From a virus (lineage: Duplodnaviria; Heunggongvirae; Uroviricota; Caudoviricetes): a stretch of 12,086 nt of DNA. The notes under the pieces are model-generated. The model did not search any database, was not told the origin of the DNA, and saw only the letters and a list, made by a program, of their open reading frames with translations. The first letter of the stretch is position 1. Every line of letters begins with the position of its first letter. Positions 3,718 through 6,314 of the stretch are shown piece by piece. The stretch spans positions 64,001 to 76,086 of IMG/VR virus record IMGVR_UViG_3300020718_000011. One strand, written 5' to 3'. The position numbers and the translations under genes are program-made.

Positions 3718-3831
3718 CATTATGAATAATGTCTTATGCGAGTGGTTGAAAAAATATGAATAATTGCGGGGCGCACTCTCGAATTTTTATTACATGAAAA
3801 TTTTAAAAATATAAAAGTGGTTGTAAAATAT

Positions 3832-3888
3832 CTTAACATAATATTAACAATAATAATTTTTTTATTTGAAATCGATTGATTACATTTA
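3832..3888 (+). promoter_or_regulatory. Promoter P3929 (variant -7 box TACATTTA)
   Basis: CTTAAC-N5-ATTAAC 3832-3848; T-tract/ATTTGAA spacer shared with P5649; TACATTTA 3881-3888 at the same 33-nt spacing. Confidence 0.7.
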
Positions 3889-3928
3889 CATGTAAATTAA
3901 AATTTTTAACAAATAGATAACTTTTCCT

Positions 3929-4360
3929 ATGTCGTTTCAGATAAGAAAGAATGGTGAACCTCTTAACATCAAAGCCCTCGACCAGGAGGCAGCGGACTTC
4001 TACAAGGTTCCGGTAGATCCAACAAGTTACGCAAGTCATGTCATACTTCCTGATGAGGATGACCCAAAATATCTGGATATGCTCCAACGCCAAATGGGAC
4101 TTAACTGGTTCGAACGTATCGGTGGTTCAATACATTTTGTTGGTAGCACTACAGAACCTGCACAACCTGAGGTTCAGCTCACATGGGATGCAGTCCGTAA
4201 GCAAATGATCCGTTATTACGTAGCGGCTTTCATGAAACACAACAAGACGGAAGAGGAAGCCACCAAAATGGTGGAAGAGGATACTACACACAACAAACCA
4301 TTACTTGACTTGACCCGTCATTGGGAAGGGAAAGGTTATGTTCCATATTATGTTTCATAA
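3929..4360 (+). CDS. Hypothetical protein, paralogue family A copy 3 (divergent)
   Basis: MSFQIRKNGEP, LDQEAA, YAS, NWFERIG..IH, TWD and KPLLDL..HWEGKGYVP match the family motifs. Confidence 0.9.
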   Translation: MSFQIRKNGEPLNIKALDQEAADFYKVPVDPTSYASHVILPDEDDPKYLDMLQRQMGLNWFERIGGSIHFVGSTTEPAQPEVQLTWDAVRKQMIRYYVAAFMKHNKTEEEATKMVEEDTTHNKPLLDLTRHWEGKGYVPYYVS

Positions 4361-4365
4361 GTTCT

Positions 4366-4509
4366 TTAAATGATGTAAAGGTAGGCTTAGAAGCAGCCAT
4401 CCTCTCAAGAGTGGGTTAACGAGGTAAAAGCTCGAACTTGCAACTCCGTTTAATCGGACGAGAAAGAGTAAGTATGACCCTTAGTCGTAACAGCACATAC
4501 ATCATTTAA
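4366..4509 (+). ncRNA. Structured ncRNA mimicking the 23S rRNA GTPase-associated centre (H43-H44, E. coli ~1054-1105) with a 72-nt insert
   Basis: 4384-4401 GGCTTAGAAGCAGCCATC is 18/18 identical to E. coli 23S 1062-1079; 4486-4497 CGTAACAGCACA matches 1092-1103 at 10/12; perfect 12-bp closing stem TTAAATGATGTA (4366-4377) / TACATCATTTAA (4498-4509); fills the intergenic gap. Confidence 0.85.
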
Positions 4510-4526: not shown

Positions 4527-4877
4527 ATGCCACAGAAAAAGAAACTCAAACCGAGACTTAAAGACATCATACCACCAAACGCTACGGTGGAACAACTAAT
4601 TAAAATACTTCCCGCCAAAACGCATAACTGCGAACCCTTTGGATTGATGCTCATGACTACAGCACCAAAGGGTTGGTCGTGTACCTATTACACTCACTAT
4701 TCCAAAAAGAGTGACGACCGCTTCCGACCGTGCATAGCCAATACTCCGCAGGGTGCACTCAAAAAAATGATTGCGGAGTTTTTACGTAATGATATAGGTA
4801 CTGCTTTACGTGTTTCGAAGAGTACCCTAAAAAGAATAGGGTCTACTATAATACCTATCAAAAGAAGGTCCAACTAA
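4527..4877 (+). CDS. Hypothetical basic protein (116 aa)
   Basis: ATG after an AT-rich leader just downstream of the ncRNA; K/R-rich. Confidence 0.85.
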   Translation: MPQKKKLKPRLKDIIPPNATVEQLIKILPAKTHNCEPFGLMLMTTAPKGWSCTYYTHYSKKSDDRFRPCIANTPQGALKKMIAEFLRNDIGTALRVSKSTLKRIGSTIIPIKRRSN

Positions 4878-4908: not shown

Positions 4909-5412
4909 ATGCCGGACACAACTAAAAAACTCTCTAAGGAAGAGTTCGTGACCTATAAGAGGTCATTTGATTCAAACAAATACTTGGTAAACTATGATGT
5001 ACGAAACCTATTGACTGGTGACGGAGAAACCGAACACATTAACGAAGACCTCGAAGGTCTTGATATTGATGCCATTATGAAACTCCGGAGAGTACCACGT
5101 CATGTAGCCGAAGCATATTACGAATGGATGGAAAATCCATTTGAGCAAACCAAAGAGGATGACGAAAAACTACTTACCGTATTAAAAAGTGTATGTAGTC
5201 ATCCCGAACTAATTCTTGTTAACGATGCCCTTTGGTGTGACATCGAGATGGCTGAGAAATGGTCAGAGTTTAACGAAGGCCAAGACGATGGTTATAAACT
5301 TGGTGGAAAGAACGATGACTTCACCGACATTGGTACTGGTGCATTATTAAACGAAGACGCATTCCTCGACGCAATAGCACACGTTTGCGATGCGAGTGAA
5401 GAAGAGGACTAA
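4909..5412 (+). CDS. Hypothetical acidic protein (167 aa)
   Basis: ORF with about 41 D/E versus 17 K/R (hand count). Confidence 0.88.
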   Translation: MPDTTKKLSKEEFVTYKRSFDSNKYLVNYDVRNLLTGDGETEHINEDLEGLDIDAIMKLRRVPRHVAEAYYEWMENPFEQTKEDDEKLLTVLKSVCSHPELILVNDALWCDIEMAEKWSEFNEGQDDGYKLGGKNDDFTDIGTGALLNEDAFLDAIAHVCDASEEED

Positions 5413-5473
5413 AGAACGTTCCTGGTAGGGATTAACAAAGTCCTGTAGATTACTAAAATCTTACCTAAACGAT

Positions 5474-5505
5474 AAGGTTGTAAGTGAAAACTTATGACCT
5501 TTTTT
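5474..5505 (+). terminator. Intrinsic terminator with GAAA tetraloop
   Basis: AAGGTTGTAAGT-GAAA-ACTTATGACCTT 12-bp stem (two G-U) followed by TTTT. Confidence 0.85.
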
Positions 5506-5573: not shown

Positions 5574-5630
5574 TTTATATTTTCTTTAACGATGGTTATT
5601 TTTTTATTTGAATACTATTCATTACATTTG
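5574..5630 (+). promoter_or_regulatory. Promoter P5649
   Basis: TACATTTG 5623-5630; TTTATA-N5-TTTAAC 5574-5590; CATTTATAWTTTCTTTAAC shared with P8292. Confidence 0.85.
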
Positions 5631-5648
5631 TCTTATAAATTTATTCTT

Positions 5649-6314
5649 ATGCCACAGGATAATACAAGTGATGAAATTAAACCAATAGAAGGATTAGGTA
5701 GATTGATACCACAAGAACGATGCCTAGATTTCGTACTTGCTGGAAAATGTATAATTACCGTTAAGAGTCTTGGACCTCGAAAACCAAATATGCCTGAGAG
5801 GGTTACCTACAAAATAGCCTGTAAGCGTGGGGTTAAACCGGAAGACGCAGACATTTGGTTTATAAACGTTCTTACTGGACCCAATAATAATTCTCATTAT
5901 AAGTATATGGGATTTATAAAACACATAAATGGTACTATAGAATATAGACGAGATAATAAAAAGAGTTCAATTGGTGAAGATGCACCCAGTAACATTATAT
6001 GGTCATTCGTCTTCAAGATGTTCGCCCAACGCCAAACTAGCAGATTATTGGAAGTGTGGCATGCTGGAAGATGTTGTCGTTGTGGCTTGAGATTAACAGA
6101 CCCCGATAGTATTGCTCTTGGATTAGGCCCACATTGTGCAGGGGTTACTAAAGTTTGGCGACCCTTACAAGTAATAGAAAACATTAAGAAAGGTACATTG
6201 GTGGATTACAATAAGATGTTAGAGAATCGTACCGACGTTACCCTAACACCCGAACAGGAAGAACGAGCAAGAAAATTGACAAAGGGACATAATTTACTAA
6301 ACCGAAATAAATAA
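5649..6314 (+). CDS. DUF6011-like Zn-binding domain protein
   Basis: GRCCRCGLRLTDPDSIALGLGPHC fits the DUF6011 pattern CxxCGxxLTdpxSixxGxGPxC; N-terminal VLAGK..ITV..TYKI..WFINVLTGPNN..Y.YMGFI block is typical of such phage proteins. Start moved from 5592 to ATG 5649 because 5592 lies inside the promoter. Confidence 0.8.
   Translation: MPQDNTSDEIKPIEGLGRLIPQERCLDFVLAGKCIITVKSLGPRKPNMPERVTYKIACKRGVKPEDADIWFINVLTGPNNNSHYKYMGFIKHINGTIEYRRDNKKSSIGEDAPSNIIWSFVFKMFAQRQTSRLLEVWHAGRCCRCGLRLTDPDSIALGLGPHCAGVTKVWRPLQVIENIKKGTLVDYNKMLENRTDVTLTPEQEERARKLTKGHNLLNRNK

Follow-up and report, generated by a model that had tools for sequence, protein, structure and literature searches.

Locus and match to 23S rRNA

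The DNA considered here (hereafter the window) is a stretch of 12,086 nucleotides from a huge freshwater phage (positions 64,001 to 76,086 of IMG/VR record IMGVR_UViG_3300020718_000011). Between two of its small genes lies an RNA element of 144 bases, at window 4366-4509. Our analysis strongly supports the view that the GTPase-associated centre of bacterial 23S ribosomal RNA (rRNA) is copied here as a stand-alone domain, comprising the top of helix H42 together with H43 and H44 (E. coli 1051-1108), and that the fold of the element has been selected for. All 23S numbers refer to the real E. coli rrlH sequence, whose 1051-1108 segment was aligned to the window. The alignment places 1055 at 4377, U1060 at 4382, A1067 at 4389, A1088 at 4410, U1090 at 4412, A1095 at 4489 and 1104 at 4498.

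At 4384-4401 the window reads GGCTTAGAAGCAGCCATC, which is identical to E. coli 1062-1079 at 18 of 18 positions. The chance expectation for such a match is about 3.5e-7 (12 kb, both strands). Positions 4486-4497 agree with 1092-1103 at 10 of 12 bases, the mismatches being U1097C and U1101A. Four pairs are altered relative to E. coli and retain pairing: U4376:A4499 (1054:1105), A4377:U4498 (1055:1104), G4380:C4402 (1058:1080) and U4412:A4495 (1090:1101). A4378.A4497 stands at 1056.1103. The domain is closed by a stem of 12 perfect pairs (4366-4377:4498-4509), the two innermost being the equivalents of 1054 and 1055, and its H44 is split by 72 nucleotides (nt) of insert and linker. Both matches, the four changes that still pair and the perfect stem had been described in the original prediction, and all were borne out when compared with rrlH.

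The same is true of the claim that no other rRNA flanks the domain. Run in E-value mode, cmscan against Rfam reports a 25-nt fragment of large-subunit (LSU) rRNA at 4379-4403, the sole rRNA trace, plus two chance matches to small nucleolar RNAs; at the gathering score it places no family on the element. This is the outcome that had been expected, a partial LSU match and no dedicated family. We reject a 23S gene or gene fragment (RF02541) as the identity of the element: there is no match at the gathering score, H44 is split, and open reading frames (ORFs) lie on both flanks.

A family of phage RNAs

A blastn search with the element region matched a gap without annotation between the tRNA-Asn and tRNA-Pro genes of Pseudomonas phage pf16. 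Two exact-pattern scans of IMG/VR, of which one used the H43 18-mer as its anchor (at least 118 loci) and one the 3' motif TTGGCGTAANAGCACAC (at least 119 loci), gave at least 147 distinct elements when the listed matches of both were parsed; counts out of 147 below refer to the matches listed. Contiguous rRNA is almost absent among them.

The members share one plan. The 5' half consists of a terminal stem, GG-R-A-NNGU-N, the H43 hairpin and AUC-NNN-UAAR-GAGU (1079-1090). The 3' half continues with a helix-closed insert, a UUUG linker, G1091, C1092, a GUAAnA loop, G1099, C1100, A1101-C-A-C-C and the other strand of the terminal stem. Three of these features are foreign to real 23S rRNA, namely the insert (24-365 nt, median 137, across the 147 elements), the UUUG linker, whose positions are 93-99% conserved across the family, and U1090:A1101. 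The latter pair is U:A in 128 of 147 members, as opposed to A:U or U.U in ribosomal 23S. About a dozen members carry an extra hairpin at a second insertion site, between A1077 and C1079; such members (among them L123, L144, L154, L176, L191, L207, L157 and L172) score lower, at 43-59 bits.

Some contigs hold more than one match. Contig L045 (IMGVR_UViG_3300042197_004918) has two copies about 320 nt apart (5138-5155 and 5456-5473, scoring 76 and 57 bits). L128 and L147 each show one more weak match, some 200-320 nt away from the main match, and L134 shows one some 740 nt away; they could be second copies or halves of members with long inserts.

Cultured carriers include pf16, GAP32, CBB, XacN1, Serratia phage BF, Aeromonas phage 4_4572 and Paenibacillus phage Pd_22F. 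The hosts of the cultured carriers span Pseudomonas, Cronobacter, Aeromonas, Xanthomonas, Erwinia, Yersinia, Serratia and Paenibacillus, and thus both Pseudomonadota and Bacillota. In the cultured phages the copies are either unannotated or covered by "hypothetical protein" calls. A scan of a 596-Gb collection of bacterial and archaeal genome contigs with the 16-base 3' motif returned 120 matches. Of these, 31 are genuine elements, which lie for the most part on contigs rich in tRNA genes from metagenome bins. We discarded the remaining 89 as chance occurrences inside ordinary genes, since membership requires the 5' half as well.

Covariation and conservation

The helices of the family covary. 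Pair 1058:1080 occurs as UA (54 members), GC (48), AU (32) and CG (5), and is paired in 143 of 147 members compared with 62 after shuffling. All four Watson-Crick types are found in the terminal stem (1051-1054:1105-1108), where 121-137 of 147 members are paired (58-101 when shuffled); the family positions equivalent to the closing stem 4366-4377 pair in 121-142 of 147. Pair 1082:1086 is UA in 66 members, CG in 40, AU in 15 and UG in 14. The three closing pairs of the insert form in 136, 134 and 125 of 147 members (85, 76 and 64 when shuffled). Position 1056.1103 is purine.A as in rRNA, with G.A in 80 members and A.A in 55.

For 40 members with short inserts, RNAalifold recovers the same helices, with 22 pairs, 17 of which show compensatory change. 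In a larger set of 104 members aligned with a covariance model, 93.1% of cells are paired compared with 69.4% after shuffling, a value that none of 500 shuffles reaches; both partners vary in 19 of the 22 pairs, and controls slid along the alignment are paired at only 28-55%. This alignment was fitted to the model and is hence biased towards the structure, but the direct counts on 147 members and RNAalifold agree with it. The original prediction argued for selection on the fold rather than for a captured fragment, and proposed a covariance model and a search for homologues as the check. With at least 147 distinct phage elements found in IMG/VR and compensatory change in every helix, the argument has been substantiated.

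To judge conservation free of the search anchors, we examined the 5' half in members found through the 3' motif (n=55) and the 3' half in those found through the 5' anchor (n=91). G1059, U1060, G1063, U1066, G1071, C1072 and A1077 are present in 55 of 55, and G1093 and A1098 in 91 of 91. The loop tips vary more: A1067 is found in 42 of 55 members, G1068 in 35 and A1070 in 40, and A1095 in 84 of 91 (92%). A1067 rises to about 85% once 31 rows bearing the consensus 18-mer are added. Position 1067 is G in 9 of the 55 members, and 13 of them have C1078. Hence, the fold core and the face that meets the C-terminal domain of ribosomal protein uL11 are more tightly held than the tip that contacts translation factors and thiopeptides.

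The window copy as a member of the family

We built a covariance model (R1; 151 positions) from 40 other members, leaving the window out. R1 matches window 4367-4508 over its full length (1-151) with 79.1 bits (E 2.4e-21), which ranks the window copy 67th of 104. Cultured copies score 100 (pf16), 90.4 (Aeromonas phage 4_4572) and 84.4 bits (Cronobacter phage GAP32), compared with 48 bits for the true 23S rRNA of E. coli, 41 for that of a Bacteroidota and 35 for a metagenomic one. The window therefore exceeds true 23S by at least 31 bits. R1 finds a single copy in the 76-kb record.

Every nucleotide that is invariant in the family is retained in the window copy. At 4379-4403, 1057-1059:1079-1081 and 1062-1065:1073-1076 are paired and the full invariant core is in place. 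The copy also has A1061, a substitution that has been used in structural work for stabilising the tertiary fold (PMC1802607). On these sequence grounds, window 4366-4509 almost certainly belongs to the family of phage mimics of the GTPase-associated centre.

One could ask whether a mimic follows the rRNA of its host. Four Bacteroidota 23S sequences (Olivibacter, Pedobacter, Prolixibacteraceae and Hymenobacter) carry G at position 1067 and an additional U following 1078; the window has neither. It is a possibility that the mimic tracks the host variant at 1067/1078, although the window itself is unlike the Bacteroidota form. The pf16 copy departs at 1058/1080 from the gammaproteobacterial type of 23S represented by E. 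coli. As a separate observation, the site of the extra U in these Bacteroidota coincides with the second insertion site of the family.

The 68-nt insert of the window is predicted to fold on its own into a Y-shaped three-way junction (-17.8 kcal/mol). It shows no likeness to the 146 other family inserts or to E. coli 16S and 23S rRNA. Two kinds of domain seen in other inserts are not present in it. One is a hairpin that resembles the sarcin-ricin loop, AGUACGAGAGGA, found in 5 of 147 members (L206, L143, L097, L037 and L180) with inserts of 309-346 nt; it matches 23S 2654-2665 at 12 of 12 bases in L206 and at 11 of 11 in L143. The other is a recurrent sub-domain in 26 of 147 inserts (e.g., L001:2630-2677, L173, L115 and L010), in which GGUAAGG begins at a fixed 18 nt ahead of the insert's end. 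Its layout is AGUA, a few bases, CACCC, a covarying hairpin of 3 base pairs (CCG-GAAA/GAGA/UAAC-CGG), UAAGG and GA, and its AGUA and GAA may possibly form an S-turn-like arrangement.

Genomic context

The element occupies a 166-nt gap between two ORFs on the same strand, 3929-4360 and 4527-4877 (Table 1). For neither did we find a Pfam family or an IMG/VR relative. The sole Pfam match among the ten ORFs around the element is DUF6011, in a 240-aa ORF at window 5592-6314 (E 1.3e-10). ORF 3929, the element, ORF 4527 and ORF 4909 appear to form one transcription unit bounded by terminator-like hairpins. The hairpins would fit the co-transcription from a promoter upstream of ORF 3929 that the original prediction proposed. 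There is no support for the label "early" that it gave to this operon.

Table 1. Features of the element and its surroundings, in window coordinates.
Feature	Position	Strand	Remarks
Terminator-like site	3767-3781		Upstream of the unit; the AT-rich 3800-3925 would bound the start of the unit
Upstream ORF, 143 aa	3929-4360	+	From the ORF list; stop 5 nt before the stem
Closing stem, 5' strand, top of H42	4366-4377	+	12 perfect pairs with 4498-4509; 4376 and 4377 are 1054 and 1055
A1056 equivalent and H43 copy (1057-1081)	4378-4403	+	A1067 loop at 4389, U1060 at 4382; 18/18 identity to 1062-1079
Turn CUCAA (1082-1086) and GAGU (1087-1090)	4404-4412	+	GAGU at 4409-4412; A1088 (4410) and U1090 (4412) as in the family
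Insert domain, 68 nt	4413-4480	+	Closed by GGGU:ACCC (4413-4416:4477-4480), the closing pairs of the family; own fold
Linker UUAG	4481-4484	+	Family consensus UUUG
H44 copy (1091-1103)	4485-4497	+	GUAACA loop, A1095 at 4489; 10/12 identity to 1092-1103; C1092:G1099 kept
Closing stem, 3' strand	4498-4509	+	Pairs with 4366-4377
Downstream ORF, 116 aa	4527-4877	+	From the ORF list; start 17 nt past the stem
Terminator-like hairpin	5474-5501	+	12 pairs and a T run, from a consensus scan; would close the unit

Neither the window nor the 76-kb record contains a tRNA gene. The completeness of the record is 14% according to CheckV, which implies a genome size near half a megabase. In the family, tRNA genes are found at 107 of 146 loci, and at 82 of them one lies within 300 nt of the element. 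They are almost always on the strand of the element (879 of 880 tRNA genes at family loci and 160 of 160 at the genome-contig loci). Such same-strand arrays suggest that family members are made as stable RNA. The pf16 copy (L001:2443-2695; KU873925.1 about 29,400-29,660) fills the 250-nt gap without annotation between tRNA-Asn and tRNA-Pro and stops 10 nt short of the tRNA-Pro 5' end. Because it adjoins this 5' end, cleavage of the array by RNase P would set its 3' side. At 39 of 146 loci there is no tRNA gene. About a quarter of the members are placed between small ORFs; these include the GAP32 copy, flanked by small hypothetical ORFs, and that of the window. We found no recurrent family of neighbouring proteins; the biggest cluster covers 6 of 146 loci.

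Proposed partner and mechanism

What could such an RNA bind? There is no conserved neighbour protein, the hosts are diverse, and we found no uL11 gene in the record of the window, pf16, GAP32, Aeromonas phage 4_4572 or a complete 224.7-kb IMG/VR genome (a uL11 gene was detected in 14 of 14 control genomes). Hence, the ligand should be a universal component of the host. The isolated fold is bound tightly by uL11 through its C-terminal domain, which contacts 1058-1060, 1062-1065, 1075-1083 and 1088 (PMC1802607). This makes uL11 the likeliest ligand. The main insert, which follows 1090, interrupts neither contact list in that paper, and in the window the listed contact nucleotides are conserved save for a C at 1084. 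We consider it probable that the window element binds host uL11.

The explanation we favour overall, in which our belief and our doubt are about evenly matched, is that the element serves as an off-ribosome decoy that binds host uL11. The element would be transcribed together with the flanking small ORFs and perhaps trimmed back to its stem. It would then bind host uL11 through that protein's C-terminal domain, and the RNA alone or the RNA-uL11 particle would act as a decoy of the stalk base away from the ribosome. The pay-off would be that uL11, or the factors that bind the stalk base, are diverted from ribosomes, such that RelA-dependent stringent signalling is blunted while the phage drives translation.

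RelA cannot be activated without uL11, as relC/rplK mutants show. Together with the putative co-expression of most family members with large sets of phage tRNAs this makes damping of the stringent response plausible. We hold the decoy and stringent-response step only tentatively, and would sooner doubt than assume it. A related idea, which we regard as rather doubtful, is that the replica of the stalk base (in some members with a sarcin-ricin copy) forms with host uL11 a particle that intercepts RelA, translational GTPases or immune toxins. Titration of uL10, which the original prediction also considered, is unlikely given that the terminal stem has no conserved sequence past 1053/1106.

Several observations weigh against the uL11 decoy as an account of the window copy. 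At the family position of 1091 the window has U4485, giving U.C with C4494 (1100), where 144 of 147 members have G:C and the window alone has U. A C at 1084 is found in the window alone among the 147 listed members. The mismatch C1082.A1086 occurs in 6 of 147 members, and the A at the third position of the UUAG linker in 5. These departures could mean that the window copy binds uL11 more weakly or is drifting. Searched as a whole against phage records by megablast, the window gave no relatives, and the variant specific to the window is absent from other IMG/VR records. We found no phage relative that could show the departures to be maintained. The copy is embedded in mRNA and free of tRNAs, and may therefore act in cis. 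A quick lytic cycle would leave little time for new ribosomes lacking uL11 to form. The partner of C1102 is either G1087 or the linker G, positions too conserved to choose between. Finally, the minimum free energy fold has -38.3 kcal/mol compared with -26.2 kcal/mol for a fold constrained to be rRNA-like (z-score only -2.0), a thermodynamic result that speaks against the rRNA-like fold and is limited by a folding model that ignores ions and uL11, on which the real centre depends. We reject the minimum free energy fold itself (GUGGGUU with AACUUGC, UAUGAC with GUCGUA), as it clashes with the covarying helices of the family.

The departures also bear on what the original prediction had said about conserved positions. 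A1067, A1095, U1060/A1088 and C1092:G1099 are indeed kept. G1091-C1100 is kept only if G4413 is counted as G1091. G4413, with which the insert begins, could pair with C4494 in place of the lost G1091, but in the family its position shows covariation with the final insert base, and the conserved G for C1100 lies past the insert. For the same reason an insert between 1091 and 1092, as first drawn, disagrees with the family, in which it falls between 1090 and 1091 and is followed by the 4-nt linker. The change of A1084 to C and the C1082.A1086 mismatch had been overlooked. Both are contained in the 20-mer of the window at 1073-1090, CUCUCAAGAGUG, which a metagenome search also found in three genuine bacterial 23S rRNAs. 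Two of these are confirmed as 23S by the LSU model (L332 and L334, 1088-1146 bits), one of them accompanied by a same-strand 5S gene, and the third (L333) is contiguous rRNA by sequence. Since the C1084/A1086 variant is found in working ribosomes, the CUCUCAAGAGUG variant is not necessarily damage.

Alternative explanations

The decoy might be aimed at something other than uL11. The RNA, with or without uL11, could spare ribosomes by attracting an attacker or modifier of the factor site, such as a ribotoxin deployed by the host against phages, an enzyme that modifies rRNA, or an antibiotic of the thiopeptide type, for which the A1067/A1095 cleft is the recognition site. Ribotoxins classically target the sarcin-ricin loop, and in the five members whose long inserts add a hairpin resembling it, the copied portion of the factor site is larger than uL11 would require. 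It also fits that there is no conserved phage protein partner and that A1095 (92%) and A1067 (about 85%) are largely kept. We nevertheless think this unlikely for the window. No toxin or defence effector of bacteria that is directed at H43/H44 is known to us, the insert of the window lacks the sarcin-ricin-like hairpin, and among the loop positions it is A1067, the key contact of thiopeptides and factors, that shows the lowest conservation (G in 9 of 55). A second variant on the same theme, quite unlikely in our view, is direct binding of translational GTPases or RelA without uL11, by which EF-G, IF2, RF3 or RelA would be sequestered or triggered unproductively. The GTPase-associated centre is the ribosomal contact of translational GTPases, and some members add a copy of the sarcin-ricin loop, the other half of the GTPase centre. 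As far as we know, however, isolated rRNA fragments bind these factors only weakly compared with uL11. In addition, conservation at the A1067 tip is lower than in the fold core and at the interface with the uL11 C-terminal domain, and the window is without the sarcin-ricin part.

It could also be argued that the element acts in cis, within the mRNA, where, as with a ribosomal protein leader, free host uL11 bound 17 nt upstream of ORF 4527 would tune how the flanking ORFs are translated or how stable their mRNA is, and their expression would so report on ribosome assembly in the host. The element lies in a 166-nt gap of a putative three-gene unit and has neither its own promoter nor its own terminator, nearby tRNAs are likewise missing for the GAP32 copy and at 39 of 146 loci, and mimicry of rRNA by leaders is an established regulatory principle. 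Yet most members sit in tRNA arrays with neither a consistent downstream ORF nor a conserved neighbour family, the flanking ORFs have no relatives beside other elements, and the isolating 12-bp stem suits an excisable module; a role in cis is hence rather unlikely. We see only a small chance that the window copy is a drifting relic without present function. Its three departures at near-invariant positions (including the lost G1091:C1100), unique insert, lack of tRNA context and lack of detected relatives would fit a relic. Set against these are the intact tertiary-core nucleotides, helices and 12-bp stem, and a mid-range score (rank 67 of 104). Furthermore, G4413 can replace the lost G, the variant at 1080-1091 exists in working 23S, and the insert folds neatly. 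Finally, it is extremely improbable that the element is a captured fragment of host rRNA or a chimeric assembly. The 18/18 identity and the 25-nt partial LSU match are what capture would leave behind, but 25 nt is the most that matches LSU rRNA, and phage ORFs lie on the flanks. The U1090:A1101 pair is specific to the family, as are the insert and the linker; four Bacteroidota 23S differ from the element at 1067 and 1078, and at least 147 homologues covary. The uL11 decoy remains the reading we prefer.

Relation to known RNAs

The closest known structure is the GTPase-associated centre of bacterial 23S itself, the 58-60-nt domain bound by uL11 and thiostrepton. The element shares its helices, the G/A.A pair at 1056.1103, the A1067 and A1095 hexa/hepta-loops and the tertiary nucleotides (G1059, U1060, G1063, U1066, G1071, C1072, A1077, A1088, G1093 and A1098). 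Unlike the ribosomal centre, it is free-standing, encoded by a phage and closed by an unrelated stem, and it carries U1090:A1101 and, after 1090, a 68-nt domain plus a 4-nt linker.

Leaders of ribosomal protein operons (the L10 leader RF00557 and the L1- and L20-type leaders) likewise mimic the rRNA site of a ribosomal protein, and the window copy is also carried on an mRNA upstream of an ORF. These leaders differ in that they are cis-regulators of cellular operons and copy the contact motif alone, whereas the element copies a whole tertiary domain. The family is borne by phages, mostly in tRNA arrays, and not beside ribosomal protein genes. We reject the identification of the element as such a leader, given that no Rfam leader matches at E values up to 10 and that the flanking ORFs have no Pfam family. 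To our knowledge, rRNA mimicry has so far been seen only in cis, in cellular ribosomal protein leaders.

In terms of the proposed principle, an abundant stable RNA that sequesters a core host protein, the element would resemble 6S RNA and the CsrB/RsmZ sponges. This is a functional analogy only: those RNAs are cellular, target RNA polymerase or CsrA, and have no relation to the element in sequence or structure. T4 rnaC and rnaD (species 1 and 2), small stable RNAs whose function is unknown, belong to the tRNA cluster and share its strand with the phage tRNAs, as most family members do, but we reject them as relatives since their best R1 score is about 4 bits and not significant. GOLLD and ROOL are also associated with phages or prophages, often beside tRNA genes, highly structured and of unknown function. 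They are much larger, the element has no Rfam match to either, and we know of no rRNA mimicry for them.

Significance

This is apparently a large phage RNA family without prior description. We found no such family in Rfam 15 or in the searchable literature (open-access papers and bioRxiv), where only structural papers on the ribosomal domain turned up, and the statement of the original prediction that no named family covers the element thus stands within these sources. Nor is an rRNA-like candidate mentioned in the accessible part of a catalogue from 2023 that covers more than 10,000 viral RNAs predicted to be structured (PMC10690425), and the family could be present unnamed among large catalogues of this kind.

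The family would provide hundreds of natural variants of a well-studied RNA tertiary fold, with insertion sites at 1090/1091 and 1077/1078. As copies exist in cultured phages, the proposal can be tested at the bench now. If it is true, phages would encode an entire functional domain of rRNA as a copy that acts in trans. Mimicry of an rRNA domain would then stand as a new class of counter-measure in viruses, of which the megaphage studied here would hold a divergent version embedded in mRNA. It would also establish a testable link that ties the tRNA arrays of phages to uL11 and to the stringent response or to immunity directed at ribosomes.

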